Shown: piece after piece, positions 511-21,475 of the stretch
How positions within the stretch are numbered: the first letter of the stretch is position 1
Layout: each line of letters begins with the position of its first letter
Assembly: GCA_023819035.1 (NCBI GenBank)
Contig: JAMWCL010000001.1
Span: forward strand, 66,441 to 130,440
DNA: 64,000 nt
Origin: Candidatus Omnitrophota bacterium
Lineage (GTDB): Bacteria > Omnitrophota > Gorgyraeia > Gygaellales > Profunditerraquicolaceae
Direction: 5' to 3'
Translations under genes and position numbers: made by a program
The notes under the pieces: model-generated
What the model was told of the DNA's origin: nothing
Database searches by the model: none
What the model saw: only the letters and a program-made list of their open reading frames with translations

Positions 511-534
511 AGTAGGTTTTACTAAAAATAGGTT

Positions 535-4665: not shown

Positions 4666-4677
4666 CTTAATTATTCC

Positions 4678-4705
4678 TTGACAATAAATTATTTTCTAAT
4701 ATACT
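4678..4705 (+). promoter_or_regulatory. sigma70-type promoter for rpmB
   Basis: TTGACA at 4678..4683; 16-nt spacer; TATACT at 4700..4705; AAGGAG Shine-Dalgarno at 4718..4723, 6 nt before ATG at 4730. Confidence 0.4.
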
Positions 4706-4729
4706 AATTTAATCTGCAAGGAGCCAGAT

Positions 4730-4960
4730 ATGCTTAAAAAATGTACCTTTTGTGGAAAGGGCACGCTTACCGGAAAAGTGGTAACCCGTAAGGGACTTGC
4801 CAAGAGTAAAGGTGGCACGGGTAGTAAAATAGCCCGTTCCTCTAAACGCAAATTTTTCCCCAATCTCCAAAAAATGCGTATCCTTATTAACCAGCATCCT
4901 CAAACTGTTTATCTCTGCGCAAAGTGTATCAAAAAAGGCAATTTCCAAAAGATTATCTAA
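4730..4960 (+). CDS. rpmB: 50S ribosomal protein L28
   Basis: 76 aa; CxxC...CxxC zinc-ribbon; segment RKFFPNLQKMRILIN...VYLCAKCIKKG matches the L28 family; strong Shine-Dalgarno and promoter. The overlapping minus-strand ORF 4709..4948 is rejected. Confidence 0.8.
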   Translation: MLKKCTFCGKGTLTGKVVTRKGLAKSKGGTGSKIARSSKRKFFPNLQKMRILINQHPQTVYLCAKCIKKGNFQKII

Positions 4961-6644
4961 AAAATATCTCTTTTATCTCCAAAAGAAGATCTGTCCTATC
5001 CTCCCAAACGTCTAAGCCAACAGTATAAACTAAATCTAAAGAATCTGCATTTAAAAGATAGGTATTGAGACATTCCATACCAAACCCTATTGCTGGATAA
5101 GTGACCATGCCGTCAGTAACCCATAATTTTATGGTGTCCTTACCAAGTATCTGAGGCTTACTTTTTAAGCTAAGGCCACGCGTATAAAATAAAACCTGCG
5201 GATTACCCACTCCATAGGGTTGTAAACTTTCTAATTCTTTAGCTAAAGATTCATTTAAATCGGAAAGCTTTATTTCCATATCTATATCTAAACTAGGAAT
5301 TAAATCCTCACCACTAAGCCATTCATTAGCTAAACGATTAATCGTATCTTTAAAATCAAATATTTTATCTTCAGCAATTAAAAGTCCCGCTGCATGACTG
5401 TGTCCGCCAAATGTACTTAAAAATTCCTTGCATTCTAAAAGCGCTTGGAAAAGATGAAAATTCTTTATTGAACGGCCTGAACCTCTACATAAACCAGGGG
5501 TTTTAGAGATTACAATCGCGGGTCGATGAAACCTATCTACTATCTTTGAGGCAACTATCCCCAAGACGCCCTGATGCCAGTTTTCTTTAGCAAGCACAAT
5601 TACCTTATCCTCGTTAAAATTAATCTCTTTCTCAATTAAAGAGTGTGCCTCTTCTAATATCTGATTTTCTATCTTCTGACGCTGACGATTATAAAGCTCC
5701 AACCGCTCAGCTAATCTATCTGCTTCCTCTTCATCTTGACTTAATAAAAGATCTAAAGAAGTCTGCGCGGTATCTAAGCGACCACTGGCATTTATCCGAG
5801 GACCTAAAATATAACTGATCGATTCGGTATCAAGGCGCATATTTTTTAACCTACTTTTTTTCTTTAAAGCCTTAAGCCCGGGATGATTAGTTTGAGCAAG
5901 TCGAAGTAACCCTTCCTTTACCATAACGCGATTCTCACTTAACAAAGGAACCGCATCCGCTACTGTACCCAAACAGACTAGCTCTAACTTATCAAATAAG
6001 TCCTCTTCGCTTAAGGCCTGACAGAATTTATAAACTACCCCTACCCCTGCTAAATCCTTATAAGGGTAGCCGGATTCTTTAAGTTTAGGGTTAAGTATGG
6101 CTGAAGCAGTAGAAGGCCTGGTTTCATCTTTAGGTTGATGATGGTCGGTAATTATTACCTCGATATTATCTTTTCTTAACTGTTCTATTTGTTCATAATC
6201 GTTTGTGCCGCAGTCAGCAGTAATGAGAACCTTAACATTTTTCTGCTTAGCAAACTCAATAATATTTCTATTTAAACCATATCCTTCTTTGATCCGATGA
6301 GGTAAATAATAGATTACCTCTAACCCCATCCTTGAAAGGGTTTCTTTTAATATTGCCAAGGAAGTCAATCCATCGGCATCATAATCACCGAAGATCATTA
6401 CCTTAAACTTATCTTTTACTGCCTTTTTGATGAGATTGACCGCCTTAGGCATCTCGGAAAATAAATAGGAGCTTAAAAGATAATTTAACTTAGGGTTCAA
6501 GAATCTTTCTGCTTCCTCTATATCTTTTATTCCCCGGTTAATCAAAATATTAGCCATAATCTTTGAAATCTTTAAGGCCTTGGTTAATTCTTCTTGTAGC
6601 TCTAAGTTTATCGGAGCAATGTTTAAAATCTTGCGCTTATACAT
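4953..6644 (-). CDS. recJ: single-stranded-DNA-specific exonuclease RecJ
   Basis: 563 aa; DHH motifs (FGDYDADGLTS, ITDHH) and DHHA1 region (GGHSHAAG). Confidence 0.85.
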   Translation of the reverse strand: MYKRKILNIAPINLELQEELTKALKISKIMANILINRGIKDIEEAERFLNPKLNYLLSSYLFSEMPKAVNLIKKAVKDKFKVMIFGDYDADGLTSLAILKETLSRMGLEVIYYLPHRIKEGYGLNRNIIEFAKQKNVKVLITADCGTNDYEQIEQLRKDNIEVIITDHHQPKDETRPSTASAILNPKLKESGYPYKDLAGVGVVYKFCQALSEEDLFDKLELVCLGTVADAVPLLSENRVMVKEGLLRLAQTNHPGLKALKKKSRLKNMRLDTESISYILGPRINASGRLDTAQTSLDLLLSQDEEEADRLAERLELYNRQRQKIENQILEEAHSLIEKEINFNEDKVIVLAKENWHQGVLGIVASKIVDRFHRPAIVISKTPGLCRGSGRSIKNFHLFQALLECKEFLSTFGGHSHAAGLLIAEDKIFDFKDTINRLANEWLSGEDLIPSLDIDMEIKLSDLNESLAKELESLQPYGVGNPQVLFYTRGLSLKSKPQILGKDTIKLWVTDGMVTYPAIGFGMECLNTYLLNADSLDLVYTVGLDVWEDRTDLLLEIKEIFFR

Positions 6645-6651
6645 ATAAAAC

Positions 6652-8289
6652 CTACATTTTTTCAGGACAGGTTAGACCTAACAATTCCAAACCGCAGGCT
6701 AGAACTACCTGGGTTGCTTTAATTAAAGCTAATCGCGTTTTTGTAAGTTTAACATCTACTCCTAATACACGATGGCGATCATAAAATCTATGGAAAAACT
6801 CAGCTACCTCCTTAAGAAATACGGTCAAAGGATAAGGATCAAGATTATCTAAGCAGACGCTTAATACAGAATCAAATCTTACTAATTGTTTAATCAGCTC
6901 TATCTCTTCCTTCTGGGTAAGTAGGGTTAAATCTATATCTTTAAGTTTAATATCTGTATCTGGCTGTCTTAGGATACTGCAGATCCGGGCATGCGCATAT
7001 TGAATATAATAAACAGGATTTTCGGGACTTTGTTTTTTAGCGGCATCCAGGTCAAAATCTAAATGACTTGAGGTCCTCCGCATAAGAAAGAAAAATCTTG
7101 AAGCATCCCTTCCTACCTCATCCATAACCTCTCTTAGGGTTACATATTGGCCTTTTCGGGTTGACATTTCCACAGGTTTTCCATCTTTAAATAAGGTAGC
7201 TAACTGAATAATAATGATGGACAAACTATTAGGGTCTTTTCCTAATGCCTCCACCCCTGCCTTAAGTCGATTAATATATCCGTGATGGTCAGGACCCCAA
7301 AGATTAATTAACCAGCTAAAACCACGTCTATATTTATCCTGGTGATAGGCGAGATCGGGAGCTAGATATGTATAGGAACCATCGCTTTTTACTACCACCC
7401 TATCCTTATCATCACCAAAATCAGTAGATTTAAACCAAATTGCGCCCTCTTTTTCATAAATAAAACCGCGCTGCCTTAAGAAATCTAAAGCCTTTTTTAT
7501 CTTACCGCTTTTTCTTAATGCCTTCTGGCTATACCAGTAATCAAATCTTATCCCAAAATCTTCAAGATCTTTTTTGATTATCCTTAAGATATATCTTACC
7601 GCATAATCACTTAGGTTTTTTATTTTAATTTTGTTTTCCCGTAATTTTTTGGCTATATCATAAATATAATCTCCTTGATAATAATCAGAGGGGTAAGTTA
7701 TCTTTTGGCCTTCTAATTCTTTTATCTTCAACTCTACACTTTTACCGAGAATCTCAATCTGTCTACCCTCATCATTAAGATAGTACTCACGCTTTACCTT
7801 AAAACCTAAAAATGCCAGTATATTTGCTAAGGAATCCCCTACTACTGCCTGCCGTGCGTGAGCAACCGATAAGGGACCGGTGGGATTGGCACTGACAAAT
7901 TCAATAAGCACTTTCTTAGAAAGACCGATATTTTTCTTAAGGGCTTTTTTTTCTTTAATAAATATATCTTTAATTTTTTCATAAAAATATATTTTAGAAA
8001 AATAAAAATTTATAAACCCCTTCCCTTCAACCTTAACTTCTTTTATATATCCCTTTAATGGCGTATCTTCCAAATCTCTCTTAATCTCCTCCACTAAAAA
8101 CCTAGCAATCTCATTAATAGGTTTATTAATATCCTTGGTTAATTGCATAGCCACATTAGTATAAAGATCACCAAAACGACTATCTTTGGGTATCTCTAAG
8201 AGAATATTCTTTTTTTCTATATTTAATCCCAAATTAATTATTGCTTTTTTGATTATAGGAATTAATAATTCTTGGATATCCTTTACCAT
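6652..8289 (-). CDS. argS: arginine--tRNA ligase
   Basis: 545 aa; class I HIGH-like region SANPTGPLSVAHARQAVVGD; C-terminal DALR anticodon-binding-like region. Confidence 0.85.
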   Translation of the reverse strand: MVKDIQELLIPIIKKAIINLGLNIEKKNILLEIPKDSRFGDLYTNVAMQLTKDINKPINEIARFLVEEIKRDLEDTPLKGYIKEVKVEGKGFINFYFSKIYFYEKIKDIFIKEKKALKKNIGLSKKVLIEFVSANPTGPLSVAHARQAVVGDSLANILAFLGFKVKREYYLNDEGRQIEILGKSVELKIKELEGQKITYPSDYYQGDYIYDIAKKLRENKIKIKNLSDYAVRYILRIIKKDLEDFGIRFDYWYSQKALRKSGKIKKALDFLRQRGFIYEKEGAIWFKSTDFGDDKDRVVVKSDGSYTYLAPDLAYHQDKYRRGFSWLINLWGPDHHGYINRLKAGVEALGKDPNSLSIIIIQLATLFKDGKPVEMSTRKGQYVTLREVMDEVGRDASRFFFLMRRTSSHLDFDLDAAKKQSPENPVYYIQYAHARICSILRQPDTDIKLKDIDLTLLTQKEEIELIKQLVRFDSVLSVCLDNLDPYPLTVFLKEVAEFFHRFYDRHRVLGVDVKLTKTRLALIKATQVVLACGLELLGLTCPEKM

Positions 8290-8344
8290 AATTTTTATTT
8301 TGCTTTAGTAAATATATCTTAAAGGAATAATGGCAGGAAACTCA

Positions 8345-8689
8345 TTACTGGAAAGTTTTTACCCTCTCCGTGATCTTATCTCTGGAAACCCTTATCCTTT
8401 TTGCCCCAGACCATAGATGTTCTAGATCATAAAATTCTCTTTTTGGTTTATGGAAGATATGGACTATCACAGAAATATAATCCAGCACAATCCAACCCGA
8501 TTCATCATTGGTTGGAACCTTAGAAAGAGAACTTATACTATCTTTATCTAAATCTTCTTGTATAGCTTGGGCAAGGGCATTTACCTGTCTTAAGGAGGTA
8601 CCACTTAAGATAACAAAATAATCACAAAGGTTTGATACCTGGCGCATATCCAGGATCAGTACCTTCTGTGCTTTTTTGGATTTAGCCAC
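8345..8689 (-). CDS. rsfS: ribosomal silencing factor RsfS (Iojap family)
   Basis: 114 aa; DYFVILSGTSLRQVNALAQAI matches the RsfS core; GTG start. Confidence 0.8.
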   Translation of the reverse strand: MAKSKKAQKVLILDMRQVSNLCDYFVILSGTSLRQVNALAQAIQEDLDKDSISSLSKVPTNDESGWIVLDYISVIVHIFHKPKREFYDLEHLWSGAKRIRVSRDKITERVKTFQ

Positions 8690-8766
8690 CTTAGATATGC
8701 GTAAGGCTAATGCCTGCGAATCTATTGTTATCTTCCTCCCAGAATATTTATAAATATAAGTCCGCT

Positions 8767-8916
8767 TTATTCTTTCCCTAAAATCTTAAACATAGATGTT
8801 CCACAATCAGGGCATTTACCTTTTACTGCGGTTCGCTTATTCTTTAAAGTAACCTTTTGCTCATCCTTCATCTCTTTTTTCGCCTTGCATTTAACACAAT
8901 ATCCCTTCTGTGCCAT
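8767..8916 (-). CDS. small (49 aa) CxxC...CxxC zinc-ribbon protein, not in the supplied ORF track
   Basis: ATG at 8916..8914 preceded by GGAGG Shine-Dalgarno (revcomp of 8921..8925). Translation MAQKGYCVKCKAKKEMKDEQKVTLKNKRTAVKGKCPDCGTSMFKILGKE, TAA stop at 8769..8767. Two Cys pairs spaced about 24 residues apart. Confidence 0.55.
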   Translation of the reverse strand: MAQKGYCVKCKAKKEMKDEQKVTLKNKRTAVKGKCPDCGTSMFKILGKE

Positions 8917-8976
8917 CTTTCCTCCTTATTTAAGATTTTTTATAACTTATTTTTTTCTTTAAGTTAATTATGTTTA

Positions 8977-9005
8977 ATTTTACATAAGATTCTTAATCTT
9001 GTCAA
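8977..9005 (-). promoter_or_regulatory. sigma70-type promoter upstream of the small zinc-ribbon gene
   Basis: On the minus strand: TTGACA (9005..9000), 17-nt spacer, TAAAAT (8982..8977). It lies about 60 nt upstream of the ATG at 8916. Confidence 0.35.
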
Positions 9006-9180
9006 TAAGTTTCAAAAATCTGTGATGTTATAATGCCAATTTGTTAAGGTTAATTGATTGTAGAAATAGAACGCTTTTGAATAAAAAAGAATACCTACTC
9101 TATTCTGTCTAAAATTTTAACATGCTTGCTTAGGAAAGATTTAACATCTTGACCCGTAATCACATCCTTAAAAAATTTTC

Positions 9181-9705
9181 CTATTCTTGCACAACTTTAA
9201 TAACAAAACCTGCGCTATGTGCGCTCATCTCCGGTGCATACATTGACTGTAAAGTAGCAGGACCAATGCGGTATATTCCGGGTTTAGTAGGTCTCAATCT
9301 GTAACGCAAGATATACTCACCATGCGGAAGCCAACTGATGAAGAAATTAGTCAAAGAATCCCGTGGCTCCTCATAAAACCAAAGGGGATCGTATTTCCAA
9401 CCACTTAAAAGCGTCTCAGCTTCAAACCCAGCTGCTTTAAGGTCCTTAAGATGCATATATTCAAATTGGCTTCTTGTATTAATCTTAAGTTGTACTTCTA
9501 TCTGATCGCCAACCGAAACTTCTTCACCGGATTTTATGGGTTTTAGATGATAGGTATCACCTTCCTTTACTCTTCGATAAAATTTACGTTCTAATTCCAG
9601 CATACCGGGGCTTGAGGCCTCAGGGATTTGGTTTGTAGAATATGTCCATGTCATGCTGGCAAAAGCAAGACCTGGACCTTCTTTTTCAATCACAGCTTTA
9701 GACAT
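9181..9705 (-). CDS. A2M-family gene, segment 4 (C-terminal receptor-binding-like domain)
   Basis: 174 aa; C-terminal A2M-like beta-sandwich (LQSMYAPEMSAHSAGFVIKV). Confidence 0.55.
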   Translation of the reverse strand: MSKAVIEKEGPGLAFASMTWTYSTNQIPEASSPGMLELERKFYRRVKEGDTYHLKPIKSGEEVSVGDQIEVQLKINTRSQFEYMHLKDLKAAGFEAETLLSGWKYDPLWFYEEPRDSLTNFFISWLPHGEYILRYRLRPTKPGIYRIGPATLQSMYAPEMSAHSAGFVIKVVQE

Positions 9706-9729
9706 TTGTGAAGTAATCTCAAAACCCTT

Positions 9730-10614
9730 TTACTGCCAGCGTAATGGTTCATTTAGCCAGTCATCTGCTTTTACAACTTCAGAGTATGTCTTTTTTCCCC
9801 ATTTTACTCTGAACGTCTCATCGCTGGCTAAAGCACCTTTTTTGTTTAGATAATCAAGGAGGGCATAAATAGCTGCCACTGAGGCCTTAGTAGATTTCCA
9901 GACTGTTCCTTTACGGTTAAAAAGAAGCCATTGCACCATTCCGCGAATAAGTTTATCTTCAGGACGCAACTCCTGTAAAGTGCGCAAGAAAAAGGCATGT
10001 TTTTCAACGCTATCAGAATACCACACCCAAGAATATTTCTCGGGTGTCCAGTAAACACCAGCAATTGGATCCTCCCTAAATCCATCCATTGCCATATCCA
10101 ATATACTTTCAGCTTTCTTTTTGTCTCCTAAGCGAAGATAGGTAAAGCTAAGATAAGCCTTTCCCAATGGTGTCAGTGCATGGATATACCGTTCCAAAAA
10201 TACTACCCAAGACTTAGCTGCCTCATAGCCTTTTTTAGCTTGAGGAAATTCTTTTGGTGAATAGGAAGTTAAAACATATGCGGCATAAGAAACCAGAGAG
10301 AGTTCTCTCTCCTCTGCTTTTAAACTCAAAGGAATCTCTTTATTAACATATTCTAATGCTTTCTCGATTATATCCTTGGGCACCTCAACTCCATAACGCC
10401 TTGCTTCGGCTAATCCTGCAAGTACATAAAGAGTCATATAGGGATCAGGTTCTCCTCCTGGCCACCAGGGAAAGGCACCATTGGCAAGCTGGGCTGCTTT
10501 TAGTTTATTAAAGTTTATTTCTTTTTGCGCCTCAACTATCTTTGGATCAAGCAGATCAATTATTGGCCAAGGAGTAGGACGCCCTTCTGATTGCCAGACC
10601 CAAGGTGTCTCCAT
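9730..10614 (-). CDS. A2M-family gene, segment 3 (thioester-containing alpha/alpha toroid domain), ends at in-frame TAA
   Basis: 294 aa; NGAFPWWPGGEPDPYMTLYVLAGL is typical of the A2M/complement thioester domain. Confidence 0.55.
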   Translation of the reverse strand: METPWVWQSEGRPTPWPIIDLLDPKIVEAQKEINFNKLKAAQLANGAFPWWPGGEPDPYMTLYVLAGLAEARRYGVEVPKDIIEKALEYVNKEIPLSLKAEERELSLVSYAAYVLTSYSPKEFPQAKKGYEAAKSWVVFLERYIHALTPLGKAYLSFTYLRLGDKKKAESILDMAMDGFREDPIAGVYWTPEKYSWVWYSDSVEKHAFFLRTLQELRPEDKLIRGMVQWLLFNRKGTVWKSTKASVAAIYALLDYLNKKGALASDETFRVKWGKKTYSEVVKADDWLNEPLRWQ

Positions 10615-10626
10615 TAAAGTCGTCAG

Positions 10627-13600
10627 TCATCTAGGATCGTCTTTTTCCCAAGGTGGAGTGGGAGTTTTACGCTCAGGAATTTTACTCACTGCTTTCTGGA
10701 TTGCCGGATATTTTTTGTAGACCTCATTGATAATGCTTAAGGGCACATATTTATTCAATATTTGCTCAACACATTCATAAGGATACTCAATAAGAAATGG
10801 TATTGTATTCAATATACTTAAAGCAAGTTGCGGCTCAATTTGAAGCAACATTGACTCGTTAATTATGGTGGGATCATCTTTTAGAGAAATCTCTAATTTT
10901 TTTGATTCACTTCCTGACAATGAAACAAATGCAGATTCAATAAGCCTTTGTCTTGATGGAAGAATAGGTAGTTCTCTTTCCTCAGCATCAGAGAGTTTAT
11001 CGGTTACTGCTGCTACTTGCACCTTGTAAGTACTTACACCTTGGGGTATTTCGATCATCCAGTTAAAGGTGTTCAAGCTATGAGGTTCTATTTTAAAACT
11101 CTTTTTGTTGTCTTTGAGTTTTAAATTTTGATTAATATTTTCTTCGTTTTCAGTTATATCAATGAATAATTCTCCTTCAAGAAGCTGGTCTGATTCATTA
11201 TGCACAATCGCAGTTACTGTGCCTTTGTCTTTTTCTCGGAAGAAGCGTGGTAAGTCTAGCCGTACCATAAGGTCTTTTTTGGTAACCGCCTCTTCAGTTA
11301 AAGTGCCTTCTTTTACATCCTTAGTAAAGGCAAATAGTTTTATCCTCCAACTTGTTAGTTGCTCAGGAGCAATAAAGGAGAATGCACCTGTTCCATCTTT
11401 TTTTGTAACAATATGTGGCTTAAAAAAGGCAGTATCAGCAAATTCCTTTCTTGTCTCTACTTTTTTAGCCGCCTCTTCGTATTTGCCTAATTCAGCTCTA
11501 AATTCGGCTCTAACCTTTCTTACTTCCATGGGAGCAGGAGCAACTTCAACCAAAAACTCTCCTTCCTCACCCTCTACCCAAGTCTTCCAAATGCGCAGAC
11601 CAGGAAGATTGGGTTCTCTTGGCAGCTGGCGAAAGGCTTTAAGCAGTTTCTCAAGCAAACCTTCGGTAATAGGTAAATTTGCTGCATTTTGCTCCTGCAA
11701 AGCATAGGCCCAAGAAAGCGGTGTAGTTCTTAAAGCGTAAAGGCTATCCAACCAGGGATTGTGAGATTCTATGTAATATTCAAGGGAGCGGTCATACATC
11801 AGAGCAAGGACTTCAGATTTTACAGGCTGATTCTCTGCATCACTAATCTTTACTCCCCAGCTAACTTCTTCTCCGGGCTTTAACTCTTTATTAAAAGGTG
11901 TAAGAGCAACCTTTAGTCTCTTCTCTTTCCAAGGAACGGAGATTGTTGCCTGTCCATAAAGAACATCAAATTCTTTTACTCCGAACCAGCGTAAACTAAA
12001 GCCACCTTTCATCTTTTCTGTTACCGGAATTTCAATTAAGCGAACTTTTTGATTACCATCAATAAGTTGATGACTTAAGAGATGCTTTCCTGCCCAGAGT
12101 TCAATATTATATACTCCACTTCCTAATCCTGAACCAATAACAAATCTGGCTACATCTCCTATTTTGTATTCATCTTTTTCTACTAATGTAACCGAAGCAG
12201 CATTTACGGGAACTACTTCTTTTAAATTTTTTGCCACGACAAAGATTTTACTCTGTTCAACTTCTTTTCCCCATTTATCTTGAGATTTCAGAATAATTCT
12301 ATACGCACCTTGAGATAGAGATGGAATTTTTATTGTGCCTTTGCCTTCTTTATCGTGCTCAACTTTACCATTGGCTACCAATTTTTCATTTGGAACATCC
12401 TTTAATTGAACATCTAATGGTGGTATCCAATGCCAATATCCTCTGTAATCGTCTCCTAAATTTTTGGTAGGAGTATCAGCTAAAGTGAAAACTTCATAAC
12501 TACCTATCCCTGGTGCCGGAGTATCATTGATGGTTAGACATTTCGAATCAATCTCGATTTCCTCTTTTTCTAAGTAGAATCCCTTTTTCGGCTCAATGAC
12601 AAGATAAATGGAATTTTTTCCAGCTTTATAAGTCTCTTGTGCCTGGATAGTTCTTCCCCCAGAATCTCTGGCTTCAACCTCAACTATAAATTGGCTAATC
12701 TCAGGGATATTTCCTCCATAGGTTTGAGAAGGAGTAGGAGTAAAAGGAATAGCAAAATTATCTTGGCTATCGGTCTTGAGCTCACCAGTAGCAATCTCTT
12801 GGGCATACTCAGGGTATTCTCTAAACCAATAACGATAACACCAAGGAATATAAGTTTGCCGTTTAATGCGATATTTAATTGGTGCATCAGGGACTGGTCC
12901 TCCAAAATAATATGTAACCTTTCCTTCAATCTTTACTTGCTCATTATACTTCCAGGCTTCAACAGCAGGTTTTAGGACAATCTCAAATTCTGGTCTTTTA
13001 TATTCTTCCACAGAAAAATAAATACTTGAGCTATTTTCAAAAAGACCATCTTTACATCGAGCACTTAATCTGTATTCACCAAGTAATCTTCCTTTAGGTA
13101 TCTCAAAATTTATATCTGCACTACCAAATTCATTGAGTGAAACATCTTCAGTAAAAAACTCCTCATCATTTGGGTCATAAGCAGAGAAAGTTACAGATTG
13201 CTTATCGCCTAAAGTCCTAAATCCCTCAGACGTTCTCCAAACTATAACTACCTTTGCTTGCACCTTATCTTGCGGTCGGTATATCGGTCTATCTGTTTCG
13301 ATAAAGAGCTCTATTGGACTAGGAGAGGAGTAACTGAGATATTGACTGCGGCTCCAATAAGAAAAGGACTTTTTAGATTTAGCAAGAGGGTCCACATTAT
13401 AATGATTATAAGCACCAGGAGAAACACTAACTGGTAAGGATAAAGAAGTAAATCCTTCTTTATCGGTCTTAAGATTAAAATAATAATCTCTCTTTGAGGA
13501 TTGAGATAAATATGTCCAAACATCTAAGTCTACATTTCCTATAGGTTTTCCTGTTTTGGCATTTAAAGTATAGAAATGAAAACCTTCATCACTAATTTTG

Positions 13601-13869
13601 TTAAAACCTTTGCCCTCGATAAAATCATAATAAGCATCTTGTGTCTTGGTAGTAAATCCGGCTGTGCCAATAAGAACAAAATCAGTAACATTGAGAAAAC
13701 AAGCTGAAAGAAGGGAACTGCCTATTTTAAATGAATCATCTGCACAGGCTAAAACTAAATAAATTCCTGTCTCTAATTCTGGTGGACTTACTTTCTGGGT
13801 AATCGATGCATAATCACCAATATCACCAGTTTTGATATTCCATTCTTTATAAGGAGTCTTTTCTGACAA
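10627..13869 (-). CDS. A2M-family gene, segment 2 (MG domains through CxEQ thioester), ends at in-frame TGA
   Basis: 1080 aa. The ORF track's start is a TTG inside a continuous frame. A2M MG-domain motifs and CVEQ thioester site are present. Confidence 0.6.
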   Translation of the reverse strand: MSEKTPYKEWNIKTGDIGDYASITQKVSPPELETGIYLVLACADDSFKIGSSLLSACFLNVTDFVLIGTAGFTTKTQDAYYDFIEGKGFNKISDEGFHFYTLNAKTGKPIGNVDLDVWTYLSQSSKRDYYFNLKTDKEGFTSLSLPVSVSPGAYNHYNVDPLAKSKKSFSYWSRSQYLSYSSPSPIELFIETDRPIYRPQDKVQAKVVIVWRTSEGFRTLGDKQSVTFSAYDPNDEEFFTEDVSLNEFGSADINFEIPKGRLLGEYRLSARCKDGLFENSSSIYFSVEEYKRPEFEIVLKPAVEAWKYNEQVKIEGKVTYYFGGPVPDAPIKYRIKRQTYIPWCYRYWFREYPEYAQEIATGELKTDSQDNFAIPFTPTPSQTYGGNIPEISQFIVEVEARDSGGRTIQAQETYKAGKNSIYLVIEPKKGFYLEKEEIEIDSKCLTINDTPAPGIGSYEVFTLADTPTKNLGDDYRGYWHWIPPLDVQLKDVPNEKLVANGKVEHDKEGKGTIKIPSLSQGAYRIILKSQDKWGKEVEQSKIFVVAKNLKEVVPVNAASVTLVEKDEYKIGDVARFVIGSGLGSGVYNIELWAGKHLLSHQLIDGNQKVRLIEIPVTEKMKGGFSLRWFGVKEFDVLYGQATISVPWKEKRLKVALTPFNKELKPGEEVSWGVKISDAENQPVKSEVLALMYDRSLEYYIESHNPWLDSLYALRTTPLSWAYALQEQNAANLPITEGLLEKLLKAFRQLPREPNLPGLRIWKTWVEGEEGEFLVEVAPAPMEVRKVRAEFRAELGKYEEAAKKVETRKEFADTAFFKPHIVTKKDGTGAFSFIAPEQLTSWRIKLFAFTKDVKEGTLTEEAVTKKDLMVRLDLPRFFREKDKGTVTAIVHNESDQLLEGELFIDITENEENINQNLKLKDNKKSFKIEPHSLNTFNWMIEIPQGVSTYKVQVAAVTDKLSDAEERELPILPSRQRLIESAFVSLSGSESKKLEISLKDDPTIINESMLLQIEPQLALSILNTIPFLIEYPYECVEQILNKYVPLSIINEVYKKYPAIQKAVSKIPERKTPTPPWEKDDPR

Positions 13870-13935
13870 ATATGATTTAAGCCAGGAATTTGCCCCATAC
13901 CAATTGAGGTTAAATATATTAGACCAGCCTTCAAA

Positions 13936-15192
13936 TCACTCATAAGCACTACCGTATTCTTTCGCCCGGAAACTAATAAATTCGTCTTTAAGCTCTTCAG
14001 GGGTTACCTGGTAAATACGGAAATAGACTGACTTAAGATTCTTTGTCGTGATAGTAAAGGCATCATTAGCAGGAGGCATAACCGTTTTTGCTTTAAGACT
14101 AAGTTGAGGTATCTGGATCTTTAAACGTAGAGCCTCAGCATAACGACTTCCATGAGTACCCGGAAAATCCCTTTCTATTTTCTCACATAATCTTACCGCC
14201 TCAGCTAACTTGTTAGCATCCTTCAATATTACCGCAGTCTCATAGCCTGCTTCTGCTTTAGCTTCGCTTGTTTTAAATTTTTCCATCCATTTAAGAAGAA
14301 TATTCTTAGCGCGTTCTTTGTATTCCTGCAAATCTTTATCCTCATATAAAGTTTTATCTTCAGTTAACTCTCTTAAATCAAATAAATTGGGATATTTTAA
14401 AGGAAGCAAAATTCGTTTTATCTTCCACCTTTCAGCTGCTTCAAAACGGCCTTTTTGGCTAAATCTGTTTGCTTCTTCCAAAAGTTGCGCTGCAGTTAAT
14501 GCCGGCGAATCATCTAAATTAACTGACTGTTTAAATTCTTCAACTAAAAGTAAGTCTGCCTTAGGTTTAAATGCCCCTTCACTTAAATTTGGAGCCTCTA
14601 CATTTAACAGAAAATTAGTCCAGCTTAAAATCAAATAATCAAACAGGGTAGGATACATGCCAAAATCAATATCTTTAATATCAAGAAAATATTCTTCCTT
14701 TCTTATATCCATCATTACAAGTTCATTTCGCAATTCCCAAAGCTGTTTGTAAGCTTTTCTAATTTCACCTTTTATCTCATCAGGGGTTAAGCGGAAAACA
14801 CTACCCTCCTCCCCATCTATGACATTACCTCTTAGGAGAGATGAATACCGCATTAAAAAATTCCTAAGTATCTCGGCTTTAAGAATTAGGATATGTGCAC
14901 GATGTGGCATTGTTTGGGGCACAGGTGTAGAAATCAATTTTTCTGCTGCTTCCCCATAGCGGAAAAGATGGATCAAAGACTCGCAGATTCTAAAAAATGC
15001 CTTCCAGCGTATCTCAGTATCAGTAGCCTCCTTATTAAATACCAGTTCATACTCCTTCAACGCTTCCTGAAATATCCCTTTATCAAACAATTCATCGGCC
15101 TTTTTTATGTCAGAAGCCAAACTAATTTCCTTAAGCAAAAGACCTAAAAATAATCCTAGCATAACATATTTACAAATTTTTCTCATCGGCAC
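13936..15192 (-). CDS. A2M-family gene, segment 1 (signal peptide plus helical N-terminal region), ends at in-frame TGA
   Basis: 418 aa. N-terminal signal peptide MRKICKYVMLGLFLGLLL. The likely true start is the internal ATG (MRK...), which has an AAAGAG Shine-Dalgarno. In frame with the next segment. Confidence 0.5.
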   Translation of the reverse strand: MPMRKICKYVMLGLFLGLLLKEISLASDIKKADELFDKGIFQEALKEYELVFNKEATDTEIRWKAFFRICESLIHLFRYGEAAEKLISTPVPQTMPHRAHILILKAEILRNFLMRYSSLLRGNVIDGEEGSVFRLTPDEIKGEIRKAYKQLWELRNELVMMDIRKEEYFLDIKDIDFGMYPTLFDYLILSWTNFLLNVEAPNLSEGAFKPKADLLLVEEFKQSVNLDDSPALTAAQLLEEANRFSQKGRFEAAERWKIKRILLPLKYPNLFDLRELTEDKTLYEDKDLQEYKERAKNILLKWMEKFKTSEAKAEAGYETAVILKDANKLAEAVRLCEKIERDFPGTHGSRYAEALRLKIQIPQLSLKAKTVMPPANDAFTITTKNLKSVYFRIYQVTPEELKDEFISFRAKEYGSAYE

Positions 15193-15227
15193 TCTTTTAT
15201 AGGGAATTGCTACTATCTAATTTTTAA

Positions 15228-16232
15228 CTAAAAAGGGGGTGTGGGATATTCTTCTTCTATCTCACCAACGATCTCTTCCAAAAGATCCTCTAAGGTGACC
15301 AAACCCAAGGTTTTCTTATTTTCATCTACTACAATCGCAATCTGGATCTTTTTTAGTTGAAATTCTTTTAAAAGCTCATTAACCCGCATCTTGTAGGACG
15401 CATAGTAAGCTGGACGCACAAGGTCAGAGGTTAAAAATAAGTTCTTATCCCTTATGGTATAAAGGAGATCGCGGGCATAGATTATACCTACAATATTATC
15501 AATAGACTCTTCGTATACCGGTAAGCGCGCATGCCCTTCCTCCACAAAGATATCTAGTAGTTGTTGAGGTACCACTTTTATATTTACCGCAATCATCCTT
15601 TCCTTAGGTACCATCACATCCACTACCCTTGTATCCCCAAATTCAAAGATGCGATGAAGCATTCTTCTTGCTTCCTCACTTAAAACACCCTCTTCCTTAC
15701 CCACCTCAATCATTGTCCTTAATTCTTCTTCGGTTATAAGCGGAGACCTCTTTACCGGACCGATCCTTAATATTTTTAAAATAAAATTACCGGTTGAGGT
15801 GAAAATAAAGATAAAGGGATAAAATAACTGGATAAATCTTTCCATAAAAGGAGCGGTAAAAACAGCAATCTTTTCTGTATGCTTGGTAGCTAATATCTTA
15901 GGGGTTATCTCACACATAATAAGCACAAAAAAGGTTGAACTAAACGTAGCAATAACTACACCCCAATGATAACCAAACCACCTTACAAATATTGCGGTTA
16001 CAATTGCAGAGATAGCGATATTTACAAAGTCATTACCGATTAATATAGCAGCGATAAATCTATCCAGTTTAGTAAGTAAATGCTGAATCGAATAAGCCTT
16101 CTTTATCCCTTTATCAATCATATGCCTTAGCTTTATTTTACTTAAACCAATTATCGCGGTTTCCGAAGCTGAAAAGAAAAATGAGAAAATAGATAAGATA
16201 AATAAAAGTATTAATAAGGCTAAGATATTCAT
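15228..16232 (-). CDS. CNNM/HlyC-CorC family membrane transporter (DUF21 + CBS pair + CorC_HlyC domain)
   Basis: 334 aa; N-terminal TM helices, CBS-pair region, C-terminal transporter-associated domain. Confidence 0.75.
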   Translation of the reverse strand: MNILALLILLFILSIFSFFFSASETAIIGLSKIKLRHMIDKGIKKAYSIQHLLTKLDRFIAAILIGNDFVNIAISAIVTAIFVRWFGYHWGVVIATFSSTFFVLIMCEITPKILATKHTEKIAVFTAPFMERFIQLFYPFIFIFTSTGNFILKILRIGPVKRSPLITEEELRTMIEVGKEEGVLSEEARRMLHRIFEFGDTRVVDVMVPKERMIAVNIKVVPQQLLDIFVEEGHARLPVYEESIDNIVGIIYARDLLYTIRDKNLFLTSDLVRPAYYASYKMRVNELLKEFQLKKIQIAIVVDENKKTLGLVTLEDLLEEIVGEIEEEYPTPPF

Positions 16233-16241
16233 TATTTAATT

Positions 16242-17516
16242 TTAAAAAGAGAGTTTCTTAAGAATCTCTTCCTCTTTATCCTTTAAAGGCCCGATAAGAG
16301 CAAGTTTCAGTCTTTCCTGTTTAAAGAGAAGCTTAGCCACCTCTCTTATCTGCTGGGGTGTGATTTTTTCTAACTGCTTAACTGTATCTTCGAAAGTATA
16401 TATCCTATCCAAGGTAGTAAGCATCTCACCTACCCAGAGCATATTATCTAAGGTATCTTCCAGGGTAAGCATTAATTGTCCGAGGTAGAACTCTTTTGCC
16501 CGCTTAAATTCATTATCGCTTACCAGGCTTTCTTTTATCTTCTTTAACTCTTTTAAGATTAATTCTATCGCCTGTATTACCTTCTGGTTATCAACCCCTG
16601 CATGCACAACGAATGCTCCCGTATCGTAGAAACGCTTTAATTGTGTACCAATCTCATAAGCCAAGCCTCTTTTTTCTCTTAATTCATTAAAGAGACGACT
16701 GGACATATTGGCTCCTAAGATAATATGCAATAAAGATAAAGCATATCTCAAAGGATGGTTTCTTTTTAAACCATAAAATCCTAATGCTAAATGCGTCTGT
16801 TCTGTTTCTTTGGGAAGTAATTTTAATCTAGGTTCATTAAGGTTTTGGTCTGCTTTTTTAAAAGTACTATTTTTACCCGCAATAAAAAAGGAAAATCTTT
16901 CCTCTACCATCTTTATAAATTTATCTTGGTTAAGATTGCCCACCGCACTTACTGTAATATTTTTAGGATTATAATAATCATTCTTAAAGCGGAGGAGATC
17001 TTTTCTTTGTATTCTGGTTACTGACTCCATAGTCCCTACTACGGGCATACCTAAGGGATGCCTTGGCCAAAGTAACTCATTTAAAAGTTCATGCACATAA
17101 AGCTGGGGTAGATCCTTATACATCTTTATCTCTTCTAATATCACGGTTCTTTCCTTTTCAATATCCTGGGGTTCTAAAAGAGCATCTATAACCATATCAG
17201 AAAGGATATCCAGGGCAGTCTTTATATAATCTGAGGGTAACCTAACCAGATAACAGGTTAATTCTTCAGAGGTAAATCCATTTAAAGAGCCACCTACACC
17301 CTCAATTGATTCTTTAATTCTTTGACAAGAATATTTTTTTGTACCTTTAAAAGCGAGATGTTCGAAGAAATGGGAGATACCCTTAAACCCTGCTTCTTCA
17401 TACCTTCCGCCCACCTTTATCCAGATACCTAAAGCCACTGATTTCATGGCGGGCATATTAGAAGTAACAATCCTTAAATGGTTATTTAATGTTGTTATTA
17501 TATATTCCTGCTTCAT
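16242..17516 (-). CDS. M16 family (pitrilysin-like) zinc peptidase
   Basis: 424 aa; inverted zinc-binding motif HFFEHLAFKG (HxxEH). Confidence 0.75.
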   Translation of the reverse strand: MKQEYIITTLNNHLRIVTSNMPAMKSVALGIWIKVGGRYEEAGFKGISHFFEHLAFKGTKKYSCQRIKESIEGVGGSLNGFTSEELTCYLVRLPSDYIKTALDILSDMVIDALLEPQDIEKERTVILEEIKMYKDLPQLYVHELLNELLWPRHPLGMPVVGTMESVTRIQRKDLLRFKNDYYNPKNITVSAVGNLNQDKFIKMVEERFSFFIAGKNSTFKKADQNLNEPRLKLLPKETEQTHLALGFYGLKRNHPLRYALSLLHIILGANMSSRLFNELREKRGLAYEIGTQLKRFYDTGAFVVHAGVDNQKVIQAIELILKELKKIKESLVSDNEFKRAKEFYLGQLMLTLEDTLDNMLWVGEMLTTLDRIYTFEDTVKQLEKITPQQIREVAKLLFKQERLKLALIGPLKDKEEEILKKLSF

Positions 17517-18301
17517 CTTCCTTTAAGAGTCTCAACAAATTTAATAACCTTTTTGAGTAAATATTTTTTATCAAGGTTGTCCTTAATCTTTTTGATAATT
17601 GCACTGCCCACAATTACCCCGTCAGCAAATTGATATATTTGTTTAACCTGCGAAGGATTAGAGATACCAAAACCTACACATACGGGTTTAGAGGTATATC
17701 TCTTAATTAATCTTAGATTTTTAATCAAATCTGAAGCTAAGATATTCCGCGGTCCGGTAACCCCGGTTAAAGAAATATAATAGATAAATCCCTTTGCTAA
17801 TCTTAGAATAAATCTTAGGCGCTTTAGGGTAGTGGTAGGAGCAACAAAAAGTATGGTATCTAAGCCTTCTTTCTCCGCTTCTCTGATAAAAGCTCTACCC
17901 TCCTCAACAGGAAGGTCAGGGACAATTAAACCATCTACCCCGCACTGTCTTGCTTTTTTAAAGAACCTCTTTTGTCCAAAGCAGAATATAGGATTGTAAT
18001 AGGACATAAGACAGATAGGAATCTGGATATCTCTGCGCACCCTTTTTACTAAATCTAATATATTGTTAAGATTAGTTTTTTTCTTTAAAGCAATTTCAGA
18101 AGCTTCTTGAATTATCGGACCATCCGCTAAAGGATCAGAAAAAGGAACCCCTAACTCTAAGATATCCACCCCTATCCTATCGAATTCAAAGATCAATCTT
18201 TTGGTTAATTTTAAATCCGGATAGCCTGCAGTAATAAAAACAATAAAAGCCTTTTTGCCCTTTCTTTTTAACTCTCTAAACTTAACCTCTATCCTGTTCA
18301 T
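17513..18301 (-). CDS. trpA: tryptophan synthase alpha chain
   Basis: 262 aa; TrpA TIM-barrel motifs (GVDILELGVPFSDPLADGP). Confidence 0.85.
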   Translation of the reverse strand: MNRIEVKFRELKRKGKKAFIVFITAGYPDLKLTKRLIFEFDRIGVDILELGVPFSDPLADGPIIQEASEIALKKKTNLNNILDLVKRVRRDIQIPICLMSYYNPIFCFGQKRFFKKARQCGVDGLIVPDLPVEEGRAFIREAEKEGLDTILFVAPTTTLKRLRFILRLAKGFIYYISLTGVTGPRNILASDLIKNLRLIKRYTSKPVCVGFGISNPSQVKQIYQFADGVIVGSAIIKKIKDNLDKKYLLKKVIKFVETLKGR

Positions 18302-19479
18302 TATAATCTTAATTTATTGGCTACAATATAGGTATCCTTATCTCCCCTTCCAGAAAGACAGACAACAATAACAGAATCTTTTTTTATTCTTTTGCTAAGT
18401 ATCTTTAAATAATATATCGCATGTGCTGGCTCAAGGGCAGGGATTATTCCTTCGGTCTGGGAAAGTAATCTAAAACCTTCTAATGCCTGCTGATCATTCA
18501 CTGCGACATAACTTGCCCTACCAATCCTTTTATAGTAAGCATGCTCTGGACCTACCCCCGGATAATCTAAGCCAGCAGCGATAGAATGGGCTGTCTTAAT
18601 CTGACCAAATCTATCTTCTAAAAGATCAGATTTTGAACCATGTAAGATCCCCGGTCTTCCTGCCACTAATGTAGCAGCATGCCTTCCTGAACTTAATCCT
18701 AATCCGGCAGCTTCTACCCCAATGAATTTTACCTCTTTATCTTTAAAAAAAGGATAAAAAAGCCCCATGGCATTACTGCCTCCCCCTACACAAGCAATCA
18801 GATAATCAGGAAGCCTTTTTTCTTTTTCTAAGATTTGTTTTTTTGTTTCTTTACCAATTACCGATTGAAAGTCCCTGACTATCATCGGATAAGGATGGGG
18901 GCCTGCTACACTTCCGATAATATAATGGGTAGTGACTACATTAGTAACCCAGTCACGAATCGCCTCATTCATGGCATCCTTTAAAGTCTTTGAGCCTGTA
19001 TTTACCGCTAAAACATTCGCTCCTAACAATCTCATCCTGAAGACATTAAGTCTTTGGCGCTCAATGTCGTGCGCACCCATATAGATATCGCATCTTAAAC
19101 CAAAAAGGGCAGATACCGTAGCGGTAGCTACACCATGCTGACCTGCTCCAGTCTCAGCAATGATGCGCGATTTTTTCATCCTTAAAGCCAAAAGAACCTG
19201 ACCTAAGGTATTATTTATTTTATGGGCGCCGGTATGAAGTAAATCCTCCCTTTTAAGATATACCCTCACCCCCAAGTATCTACTTAAATTTTTTGCAAAA
19301 TATAAGGGTGTCGGCCTTCCCGCATATTCTTTAAGATAATAATTAAGCTCCTGAATAAATCCTTTATCACGTCTTGCCTTTTTATATTCTTTCTCTAATT
19401 CCTCTAAAGCATACATTAATGTCTCAGGAACGAATCTTCCCCCAAATTCACCAAAATGACCTTTCTTATCCGGTAACAT
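18301..19479 (-). CDS. trpB: tryptophan synthase beta chain
   Basis: 392 aa; PLP-lysine region [17 protein letters not shown]. Confidence 0.9.
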
Positions 19480-19487
19480 AAAAACCC

Positions 19488-20114
19488 TTATATTTTAATT
19501 GCCTTTACTGCCTTTATGAATCTTATAATCTTATGCGGATCTTTCTTGCCTGGCTTTATCTCTAAAGAACTTGAGACATCTACCCAGTCAGGTCTAATAA
19601 GCTTTATTGCTTCTTTTACATTTCTTAGATCTAAGCCTCCCGATAAAAAGATAGGTTTTCTAATCTTGTCTCTAATTGCCTTTAATAAATCCCAATTAAA
19701 ATGCTTACCCGTTCCTCCCGATTTAGATTTTACAAAGGTATCAAATAGGTAGGCAGAGGTATTATAACTTAAGATCTCCGATAAATCTATGCGGTCTTTT
19801 ATCCTAAATGCCTTAATCACCGGATAATCTTTAAATTGCTGGCAAAACCGGGGAGATTCATCTCCATGAAACTGCAGGAGATCAAGCTTGCAAATCCTGG
19901 CAATATCCTTTATTATCTTTTCTTTGGCATTTACAAATACCCCAATCTTTTTAATCTTTTTAGGTAGGTTTCTAATTATCTGCTTTGCCCTTTGGGCAGA
20001 GATATAACGTGGGCTCTTTTTATAGAAGATAAATCCTAAGGCATGGCAACCCGCATTAATTGAGGTTAAGGCATCCGATAAATTAGTTATTCCACATATC
20101 TTTATCTTTACCAT
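19488..20114 (-). CDS. trpF: phosphoribosylanthranilate isomerase
   Basis: 208 aa; [10 protein letters not shown]... typical TrpF start. Confidence 0.8.
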
Positions 20115-20896
20115 CCCATAAGTTCCTCTATTCTTCTTCTTATATCCTCTGCTTCCATAATTGCTTCACCAATTAATACTGCATTTACTCCTAAGAGCTT
20201 CAAAAATAAAACATCCTGGTGGGTTCTTATTCCGCTTTCTACTACTACCACCTTATCCTTGGGGATTAAGGGATAAAGCCTTTCCGTAGTTTTTAGATCA
20301 ACCTCTAAGGTATGTAGATCCCGATTATTTATCCCGATTAAAGAAGCTTTTAAGGATAAAACCTTCTTTAATTCTTTTTCATCATGAACCTCAACGAGGG
20401 TCTCAAGACCAATCTCTTTAGCTAAATCCATTAATTCTTTTAACCTCTCTTTTGATAAAACAGTAGCGATTAAAAGTACCGCATCCGCACCATAGAAGCG
20501 CGATTCATATATCTGATATGGCTCAAGGATAAAATCTTTCCTAAGCATAGGTAATTTTATCTCTTTTTTAATCTCTGCTAAGGTTAAGATACTTCCTCCA
20601 AAATAATCCTCTTCCGTTAATACCGAGATCGCCTGAACACCTGCGTCTTGATAGATTCTAGCAATCTCTAATGGATTAAAGTTATTGCGGATTATTCCTT
20701 TGGAAGGGGATTGTTTTTTAATCTCAGCGATTAAAGAGATAAAATGGGGCTTTAAGATCGCTTTAATAAAAGGGTTAGTAGGCTTAAGCTCCTTAATCCT
20801 TTCCTTTAATTCCTCCTCAGGTAAATTCTGTTTAGCTAAAATGATCCTTTCTTTTTTCTTGATAATTATCTCTTTTAAAATATCCTTTTTTTTCAT
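20108..20896 (-). CDS. trpC: indole-3-glycerol-phosphate synthase
   Basis: 262 aa; IAEIKKQSPSKG, LRKDF motifs. Confidence 0.85.
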   Translation of the reverse strand: MKKKDILKEIIIKKKERIILAKQNLPEEELKERIKELKPTNPFIKAILKPHFISLIAEIKKQSPSKGIIRNNFNPLEIARIYQDAGVQAISVLTEEDYFGGSILTLAEIKKEIKLPMLRKDFILEPYQIYESRFYGADAVLLIATVLSKERLKELMDLAKEIGLETLVEVHDEKELKKVLSLKASLIGINNRDLHTLEVDLKTTERLYPLIPKDKVVVVESGIRTHQDVLFLKLLGVNAVLIGEAIMEAEDIRRRIEELMGW

Positions 20897-21475
20897 TTAT
20901 ACCTTTAAAAAATTAGCTAAAATATCAAGTCCTGATCTGGTCAAGATTGATTCGGGATGAAACTGTAGCCCCCATACAGGATAATCTTTATGCTTTAAAC
21001 CCATAATCTCATCATCCTTAGTCCAGGCAGTGATCTGAAGGATTTTAGGAAGGCTATTTTTCTCGACAATAAGAGAATGATATCGTGTTGCCTCAAAAGG
21101 ATTGGGTATTCCTTTAAATATGGTGCGTTGATTATGATAAATAAGCGAGGTCTTACCATGCATTAATCTTTTGGCATTAATGATCCTTGCTCCAAAAACA
21201 AAACCAATTGCCTGATGTCCAAGGCAGACCCCTAATATGGGAATCCTTCCGGCAAACTCCTTTATGAGCTCGCAGGTAATCCCCGCATATTCAGGTCTAC
21301 CCGGACCAGGGGAGATAACGATCTTGTCAGGTTTTAATCTTTTTATCAGGTCTAAAGTTATCTTATTGTTTCTAAAGACCTTTGCCCTCTGTCCCAGAGA
21401 ACCTAAATATTGCACAAGATTATAGGTAAAGGAGTCGTAGTTATCAATCATCAAGATCATTCCTTCTCCCTCCAA
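20897..21475 (-). CDS. trpG: anthranilate synthase component II / class I glutamine amidotransferase (TrpG/PabA type)
   Basis: 192 aa; catalytic GVCLGHQ; a likely start at internal MILMIDNYDSF (21460) would form an ATGA overlap with the murA stop. Confidence 0.8.
   Translation of the reverse strand: MEGEGMILMIDNYDSFTYNLVQYLGSLGQRAKVFRNNKITLDLIKRLKPDKIVISPGPGRPEYAGITCELIKEFAGRIPILGVCLGHQAIGFVFGARIINAKRLMHGKTSLIYHNQRTIFKGIPNPFEATRYHSLIVEKNSLPKILQITAWTKDDEIMGLKHKDYPVWGLQFHPESILTRSGLDILANFLKV

Follow-up and report, generated by a model that had tools for sequence, protein, structure and literature searches.

The known systems closest to the locus described below are bacterial alpha-2-macroglobulins (A2Ms). 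Type I includes Escherichia coli YfhM/ECAM and Salmonella Sa-A2M (PDB 4ZIQ, 5A42, and 4U48; PMC4498604, PMC5764988). Type II is represented by Pseudomonas aeruginosa MagD and E. coli YfaS and by the mag operon (PMC5764988, PMC3735191). The locus considered here lies in a 64,000-nucleotide stretch of a Candidatus Omnitrophota contig, referred to below as the window, and holds an A2M-family gene whose single reading frame is crossed by three in-frame stop codons. As argued below, it is probably an accessory A2M gene that was inactivated recently and is now a pseudogene.

One Interrupted Reading Frame

A sequence-only reading of this DNA had described four ORFs (13936..15192, 10627..13869, 9730..10614, and 9181..9705). 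Retranslation returned exactly these coordinates in one common frame, and the sense segments separating each stop from the start listed after it (FEGWSNIFNLNWYGANSWLKSY, LTTL, and KGFEITSQ) were likewise as claimed. The frame as a whole is as follows.

9181..15192, minus strand: whole interrupted A2M-like frame, from translation and end-to-end alignment to ~2000-residue homologues

It spans 2004 codons including the final TAG, with stops only at codons 419, 1522, 1821, and 2004 and no frameshift across its length; the likely true start is the ATG at 15186. Single proteins of 2000–2040 residues align with the concatenated frame over its entire length at identities of up to 82%, and P0123, the protein of the closest relative, L001, a Tibetan hot-spring metagenome-assembled genome (MAG), reaches 91.6%. 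The four-ORF arrangement therefore did not arise by chance.

Most of the comparison comes from other Omnitrophota MAGs. Approximately 90 relatives are single ORFs of ~2000 residues, uninterrupted in ∼56 full-length proteins and ∼35 DNA loci, and none is natively encoded as four genes. One locus, L033 (CP070807.1), was left out, as its record consists of short pieces joined by runs of 100 Ns. The GenBank entry for the interrupted copy gives three or four separate proteins (MCM8800464-66); the correct annotation would be one pseudogene. Exact look-up of pieces 2 and 3, and of the neighboring CNNM and RsfS proteins, found them on no other assembly.

Domain Architecture

That the pieces belong to one A2M-family gene carrying the motif YPYECVEQ is borne out by four Pfam matches and by a family profile, which agree on the following layout.

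15112..15186, minus strand: predicted signal peptide, MRKICKYVMLGLFLGLLLKEISLA followed by SD, read from the sequence
14113..15111, minus strand: TPR-like helical domain of ~330 residues, AlphaFold pLDDT 86.9, all-helical to residue ~358
13015..13308, minus strand: MG2 domain, Pfam PF01835, E 3.7e-17
11782..12183, minus strand: A2M bait-region domain (A2M_BRD), Pfam PF07703, E 5.9e-9
11170..11433, minus strand: A2M domain, Pfam PF00207, E 5.1e-18
9793..10875, minus strand: thioester domain, approximate limits from the family profile, cut by stop 2
10762..10773, minus strand: CVEQ thioester motif, within YPYECVEQ at 10762..10785
9229..9600, minus strand: C-terminal bacterial MG10 domain (bMG10), Pfam PF17973, E 2.1e-25

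The order of MG, bait-region, and A2M domains is canonical, and together with the CxEQ motif and the C-terminal MG10 domain it places the gene in the A2M/thioester-containing protein superfamily. The Cys, Glu, and Gln of CVEQ are each at least 90% conserved in 31 homologues. A single-sequence phmmer search did not reach the bacterial A2M structures; the family profile aligns to residues 1184–1332 of the YfhM/ECAM thioester domain (E 1e-19) and matches TEP1, CD109, human A2M, and C3/C4/C5. The TPR-like domain, which has weak TPR matches to LGN, LapB, and BamD, is specific to this ~2000-residue subfamily. Inspection by eye of the N terminus, MRKICKYVMLGLFLGLLLKEISLASD, revealed no lipobox Cys (L-x-x-C).

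An intact gene would thus encode a secreted or periplasmic thioester-type A2M of ~2000 residues, composed of a signal peptide, a TPR-like domain, MG domains, a bait region, the CVEQ thioester domain, and MG10. Such a protein probably traps proteases.

Probable Insertion into a Conserved Block

The position of the gene is new here and was missed by the sequence-only reading. Four relatives share the gene order trp-M16-CNNM-DUF5679-RsfS-ArgS-RecJ-L28-UvrD; CNNM and DUF5679, the genes that border the A2M gene in the window, have no such gene between them in these relatives.

15228..16232, minus strand: CNNM/CBS "hemolysin family" gene, upstream insertion border, directly next to DUF5679 in relatives
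8767..8916, minus strand: DUF5679 zinc-ribbon gene, downstream insertion border, from gene order in relatives

These relatives are rather distant (ArgS ∼64% identical). The arrangement suggests a lineage-specific insertion into the block, with gain favored over loss by parsimony only. DUF5679 has kept a promoter-like site of its own (TTGACA-17-TAAAAT at 9005..8977), similarity to L001 extends from the ATG to 9 nt past the stop, and no target-site duplication or flank similarity was found at the borders. Foreign composition is marginal: GC3 is 0.29 compared with 0.337 ± 0.038, and the codon-usage distance lies slightly above that of other long genes. Two further ideas about the borders were rejected. 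The 334-residue CNNM is shorter than ∼420-residue models, but all Omnitrophota homologues have 330–345 residues, so it was not truncated by the insertion; and 8290..9180 hides no broken gene, as it holds RsfS and DUF5679 just as in relatives.

Comparison of the genes flanking 43 A2M loci gave no shared gene family. The large TPR-A2M gene is widespread in Omnitrophota, with a different neighborhood in every genome, and is best regarded as a movable and dispensable accessory gene. Damaged copies in at least two other lineages, with frameshifts in L022 and an internal deletion in L031, fit a dispensable gene, which the A2M gene here appears to be as well.

Ancestral Codons of the Three Stops

Alignment to homologues, which had been proposed as the way to find the codons that the stops replaced, gave a direct answer. 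L001 is intact and reads CGA, CGA, and GAA where the interrupted copy has its stops, so that each stop represents one GC>AT base substitution (C>T for stops 1 and 2, G>T for stop 3).

13936..13938, minus strand: stop 1, TGA, codon 419; CGA (Arg) in the closest intact copy, C>T
10627..10629, minus strand: stop 2, TGA, codon 1522; CGA in the closest intact copy, C>T
9730..9732, minus strand: stop 3, TAA, codon 1821; GAA in the closest intact copy, G>T transversion

Both TGA codons thus have one of the origins that had been suggested, CGA, and the TAA derives from GAA rather than CAA. Similarly, the proposed transition bias from G/C to A/T holds in direction for all three stops and fails for the third change, which is a transversion. 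Every other locus compared has sense codons at all three positions. Stop 1 falls in a column that is variable in the family (Arg in 19 of 56 homologues), whereas the column of stop 2, inside the thioester domain 45 codons past CVEQ, is Arg in 55 of 56. Stop 3 lies past the thioester domain and ahead of the C-terminal MG10 domain, in a column occupied by Glu in 27 homologues, Lys in 22, and Gln in 3. Stops that lie in frame at sense positions of intact orthologues are the pattern of a nonsense-type pseudogene.

The standard genetic code that had been assumed is in use. Among 53 large ORFs in the window, 33 end in TAA, 10 in TAG, and 10 in TGA. The gene trpA (17513..18301) ends in TGA; apart from the A2M gene, TGA terminates 8 genes of the window, several of them in ATGA stop-start overlaps.

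The proposed history would begin with a gene-sized insertion between CNNM and DUF5679 in this Omnitrophota lineage, followed by three independent single-base GC>AT substitutions (CGA>TGA, CGA>TGA, and GAA>TAA). Translation ending at stop 1 would yield the signal peptide and TPR-like domain followed by just a few strands of the first MG domain; with all later domains missing, no protease-trapping protein would be possible.

Selection and Timing

The gene had been described as decaying, yet no decay is visible in its substitutions. Branch changes amount to 44 missense and 47 synonymous (N:S) in the interrupted gene and 60 and 59 in an intact sibling, against a neutral expectation of ∼2.9:1. Relaxed selection is therefore not seen in the interrupted gene, as its N:S equals that of the sibling. 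If the stops are real, the absence of a rise toward the neutral ratio makes inactivation recent, and a model built on the N:S counts gives a maximum likelihood estimate of ∼17 neutral substitutions since that event. Continued function would account equally well for this absence of relaxation.

Three nonsense changes without a single indel had also seemed unusual for a decaying gene. Modeling removes this difficulty: given the neutral time allowed by N:S, the probability of at least two further nonsense changes is ∼0.18 and that of no frameshift is 0.2–0.57. A smaller oddity is that the gene contains only eight CGA codons and two of them became stops, which plain random decay does not predict. 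Under the measured spectrum, two of three stops on CGA has a post hoc probability of ∼0.002–0.006. CpG hypermutability was considered as the cause, and the measured excess of only 2-fold is insufficient.

Alternative Explanations

The strongest competitor, although rather unlikely, is an assembly or population artefact, in which the consensus was built from minority or mixed-strain variants or from damage-type errors (C>T by deamination, G>T by oxidation), so that the three stops never occur together in one cell or the dominant genotype is intact. Several observations are compatible with this. The source is a MAG, a sibling contig of the same batch has a k-mer coverage of only ∼1.08, and the data probably come from an Illumina/SPAdes study (PMC10066038), whose short reads cannot phase stops 0.9–3.3 kb apart. 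Moreover, all three changes match the classic types of damage exactly, and the A2M gene otherwise appears fully conserved. However, general sequencing error is excluded by the finding that none of the ∼50 other genes in the window is interrupted. An artefact would have to place its errors in the A2M gene alone, next to ∼58 kb of coding sequence free of interrupted genes, and all of them on stop-creating sites, although stops arise from only ∼5% of substitutions. The length of the contig (139,764 bp) also implies good coverage. The stops are likely to be present in cells and not merely in the assembly.

It is improbable that the gene is still functional, either as four reinitiated fragments that assemble or as a full-length protein made by read-through. 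A signature of purifying selection does extend beyond stop 1 (26 N : 29 S in segments 2–4), ATG codons follow stop 2 after 4 codons and stop 3 after 8, the pieces appear in GenBank as separate proteins, and the base after the TGA of stop 2 is C. A TGA followed by C is a leaky context in E. coli. Against this, neither stop 1 nor stop 2 coincides with a domain boundary: the former interrupts the first MG domain, and the latter lies 45 residues into the thioester domain. No Shine-Dalgarno-like sequence precedes any restart, the first possible start after stop 1 is a TTG 22 codons on, full-length product requires suppression of both TGA and TAA, and 0 of ∼90 relatives are split. Split expression or read-through, offered by the sequence-only reading as the alternative to decay, finds no positive support: the cuts lie inside domains, and two types of stop codon would need to be suppressed.

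Equally small is the chance that the stops are not lethal to the protease trap or, in a milder variant, that several selected loss-of-function alleles exist in the population and were merged by the assembler. If A2M were still made, this would explain the agreement of its N:S with that of the intact sibling.

Codon-level recoding, with in-frame TGA decoded as Arg, Sec, Trp, or Gly in the organism or in this gene, is very improbable: both TGA codons do stand at Arg positions of relatives, one of them invariant, and two changes on eight CGA codons are unlikely by chance, but TGA terminates other genes of the window, stop 3 is a TAA, the window contains no tRNA and 8000..16500 no Rfam match, the aligned residue is Arg rather than Cys, Trp, or Gly, no GTDB locus has TGA at the invariant Arg, and a literature search gave no link between Omnitrophota and stop-codon reassignment. 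JGI metagenomes gave 0 matches to TGA in the WEKDDPxR/LxTLMETPW context, a search of low power given only 10 matches for the Arg-codon control. Neither reassignment as in codes 4 and 25 nor selenocysteine insertion agrees with terminating TGA codons, Arg columns, and this lack of a tRNA or Rfam match.

A recently inactivated pseudogene remains the preferred reading of the locus. The broken gene itself has little significance beyond annotation. The subfamily to which it belongs, ∼2000-residue proteins combining TPR and thioester domains, is uncharacterized and could bear on protease defense in ultra-small, possibly host-dependent bacteria.

Comparison with Known Systems

When intact, the Omnitrophota A2M shares with type I A2Ms the multi-MG layout, bait region, A2M domain, CxEQ motif, thioester domain, and MG10, and by analogy is presumed to entrap proteases as they do. 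Sequence similarity to type I is distant only. The Omnitrophota protein is longer by about 350–400 residues, owing to its N-terminal TPR-like domain, and its signal peptide is without a lipobox Cys, whereas type I A2Ms are lipoproteins anchored in the inner membrane. Type I genes are paired with pbpC; in the flanks of 43 loci the Omnitrophota gene has no pbpC partner and no conserved neighbor. The gene studied here differs further from type I in being broken by three stops.

The likeness to type II is that of a large periplasmic A2M-fold protein, and the homologues are labeled in JGI as "YfaS (alpha-2-macroglobulin family)." Type II A2Ms, however, lack the thioester and belong to a six-gene operon, whereas the Omnitrophota A2M has kept CVEQ and its gene stands alone.

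With nonsense-disrupted bacterial pseudogenes, such as those of host-restricted or reduced genomes, the locus has in common the in-frame stops, the GC>AT direction of change, and the accessory nature of the gene. It differs from them in having no frameshift, no measurable relaxation of selection yet, and two of its three changes on the rare codon CGA.

An interrupted A2M reading frame

The alpha-2-macroglobulin (A2M)-like gene of the window is probably a recently inactivated accessory pseudogene. Translation of 9181..15192 (- strand) yields 2004 codons, with stops at codons 419, 1522 and 1821, a terminal TAG and no frameshift. The four open reading frames described in the sequence-only reading (13936..15192, 10627..13869, 9730..10614 and 9181..9705) are all present on the - strand in one common frame, and the short sense stretches that follow each stop agree with its text.

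Features of the interrupted gene
14113..15111, - strand, N-terminal TPR-like domain of about 330 aa, from the predicted structure
13938..13936, - strand, stop 1, TGA at codon 419, CGA>TGA (C>T); family column variable, Arg in 19/56
10629..10627, - strand, stop 2, TGA at codon 1522, CGA>TGA (C>T); family column Arg in 55/56
9732..9730, - strand, stop 3, TAA at codon 1821, GAA>TAA (G>T); family column Glu 27, Lys 22, Gln 3

The closest intact relative, P0123 (MCM8780819.1, 1984 aa, on JAMWDE010000048.1 of isolate QZM4_2.bins.442.Tibet), was reached by cluster look-up; its gene is 92.6-95.4% identical to the window gene in DNA and 91.6% in protein. It carries CGA, CGA and GAA at the three stop positions, and relative to these codons each stop is a one-base substitution in the GC>AT direction. 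Of the two origins proposed earlier for the TGA codons (TGG or CGA), CGA therefore holds for both, whereas the proposed CAA origin for the TAA gives way to GAA.

A search with the concatenated frame recovers 56 full-length single proteins (1986-2053 aa, 46-82% identity), mostly from Omnitrophota MAGs. Sense codons occupy the three positions in every orthologue (~30 GTDB loci and 10 JGI loci), and nothing among these proteins and loci is split into separate genes as the window A2M is. The loci are uninterrupted save two: MHGP01000011.1 (673..6775) aligns in pieces spread over three frames, which implies that it has shifted frame twice, and CAYJUK010000018.1 (10001..11517) keeps only residues ~3-86 and ~1563-1996, with ~1480 internal codons deleted. 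The 'chromosome' record of Omnitrophota bin1292 (CP070807.1) consists of 600-1000-bp pieces between runs of exactly 100 N, and its A2M fragments are out of order, making it unusable for synteny.

Family membership and predicted product

By Pfam, the long piece carries MG2, A2M_BRD and A2M, and the last piece carries bMG10. When 31 homologues are combined into a profile, it hits insect TEP1, CD109, human A2M and complement C3/C4/C5, and its region after CVEQ matches the thioester domain of Salmonella A2M and Escherichia coli YfhM/ECAM. Within these homologues the motif's C, E and Q are at least 90% conserved. Pfam and profile evidence thus agree on the A2M identity already proposed, and by every feature that can be tested in sequence the gene is a member of the A2M/TEP superfamily. 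The N-terminus resembles a signal peptide but has no lipobox; together with the domain matches and CVEQ, it indicates that the intact product would belong to a ~2000-aa subfamily of thioester-type A2Ms and would be secreted or periplasmic.

The first ~360 residues are all-helical and TPR-like in the predicted structure (pLDDT 86.9). The ~330-aa domain has no Pfam family, and its structural matches (LGN, LapB, BamD) are weak. A 181-aa open reading frame antisense to the A2M domain region (11162..11707, + strand) recurs in 26 orthologous loci; rather than a gene, it is most likely a side effect of sense-frame conservation.

Insertion between CNNM and DUF5679

The window and four relatives share the order trp genes, M16 peptidase, CNNM, DUF5679, RsfS, ArgS, RecJ, L28 and UvrD. 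The CNNM/CBS homologues come from four independent Omnitrophota lineages and are 75-78% identical. L28 lies on the opposite strand in window and relatives alike; this rpmB gene (~4725..4949, + strand) is the only opposite-strand gene noticed in the window, where all ~55 large ORFs (1..64000) lie on the - strand and GC skew is uniformly negative on the + strand.

In the four relatives (L045, L047, L048 and L050) the CNNM-DUF5679 gap spans only 61-192 bp and holds no A2M gene. The window's 6-kb A2M gene occupies exactly this gap, starting 36-41 nt past CNNM (15228..16232, - strand) and ending 264 nt before DUF5679 (8767..8916, - strand). The window's neighbours are absent from all 43 A2M loci elsewhere, which have no neighbours in common with one another. 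Upstream of the P0123 copy, for example, lies an HTH gene, and sequence similarity between this copy and the window runs from the ATG to 9 nt past the stop. The A2M-free gap and these unshared neighbourhoods mark the window A2M, on gene order, as a relocatable accessory gene and a lineage-specific insertion. With the four relatives rather remote (ArgS ~64% identical), the choice of gain over loss is one of parsimony. The insertion borders showed neither repeats nor target duplications, and composition is nearly native (GC 0.380 vs 0.374; GC3 0.29 vs 0.337 +/- 0.038).

Age and origin of the stops

Differences from P0123 were polarised with four outgroups. Derived amino-acid changes number 54 on the window branch and 83 on the intact sibling branch, and codons with a single difference give missense to synonymous counts of 44 : 47 (plus three nonsense) and 60 : 59, respectively. 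The neutral expectation for the window sequence is ~2.9 : 1, with 5.3% of substitutions creating stops. No relaxed selection is visible in these counts, including downstream of stop 1 (26 : 29), so the stops, if real, would be recent compared with the ~5% divergence that separates the gene from its intact sibling. That sibling copy lacks ~38 bait-region residues, and its SRSQYLSY stretch is replaced by a derived cluster, EYDLSFYY, which looks like a compensated frameshift.

Three nonsense changes with no indel had been considered unusual. A joint likelihood on missense, synonymous and stop counts puts the neutral phase at ~17 substitutions. Averaged across the neutral times that the counts permit, the probability of at least two more nonsense changes after the first is ~0.18. 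With indel:substitution ratios of 0.2 to 0.05, a gene would stay free of frameshifts with a probability of 0.2-0.57. The pattern is therefore unremarkable.

The CGA>TGA changes are mildly odd. The restored gene has only eight CGA codons, and CGA>TGA makes up 2.4% of nonsense paths, a share that rises to 4.6% once the measured two-fold CpG transition excess is applied. The post hoc probability of its occurring in at least two of three stops is ~0.002-0.006, a small excess beyond what the ~2x CpG elevation explains. The contexts gagCGAttt and agaCGActg have no obvious longer motif in common; a 5-methylcytosine hot spot is possible and the most economical idea.

Weighing the explanations

An assembly or mixed-population artefact is unlikely. 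It is countered most strongly by ~58 kb of neighbouring coding sequence in which no gene is interrupted; moreover, stops arise from only ~5% of random changes. The QZM4 label appears in a study based on Illumina 2x150 reads and SPAdes (Seymour et al. 2023, PMC10066038), and neighbouring accession numbers suggest that the window MAG comes from that study too. The contig of the intact sibling copy (L001/L002) has a k-mer coverage of ~1.08.

Function kept through reinitiation or read-through would accommodate the unrelaxed missense to synonymous ratio and the ATG codons four codons past stop 2 and eight past stop 3. It has little chance of being right, however: the cuts lie within domains, none of the restarts has a Shine-Dalgarno-like sequence ahead of it, two kinds of stop (TGA and TAA) must be passed, and split relatives were not found. 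Recoding of in-frame TGA is very unlikely, since TGA ends eight other window genes and TAA and TAG many more, confirming the standard code, and there is no tRNA gene in the window and no Rfam element near the A2M gene; a JGI metagenome pattern scan for TGA at the invariant Arg in conserved context returned none (the Arg-codon control, at 10 contigs, gives it low power), and a full-text search found no paper joining 'Omnitrophota', 'stop codon' and 'reassignment'.

Recent inactivation is thus the preferred reading, and nonsense disruption of a MAG gene is an ordinary phenomenon. The stop at codon 419 would by itself cut the product down to its signal peptide, its TPR-like domain and a short remnant of the first macroglobulin domain. 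GenBank lists the pieces as MCM8800464-66, from a 'Candidatus Omnitrophica bacterium' MAG in which their contig measures 139,764 bp; this annotation is to be corrected to one pseudogene rather than separate proteins. The case would mark the large Omnitrophota A2M as a mobile, dispensable gene.

Comparison with known A2Ms

When intact, the window protein would work like type I (thioester) bacterial A2Ms, and its likeness to ECAM suggests protease trapping (PMC4498604; PMC5764988). It is not of type II (MagD/YfaS), where the thioester is missing. It differs from the YfhM type in having no lipobox and no pbpC partner and in its extra TPR-like domain, an N-terminal addition of this subfamily that characterised A2Ms lack.
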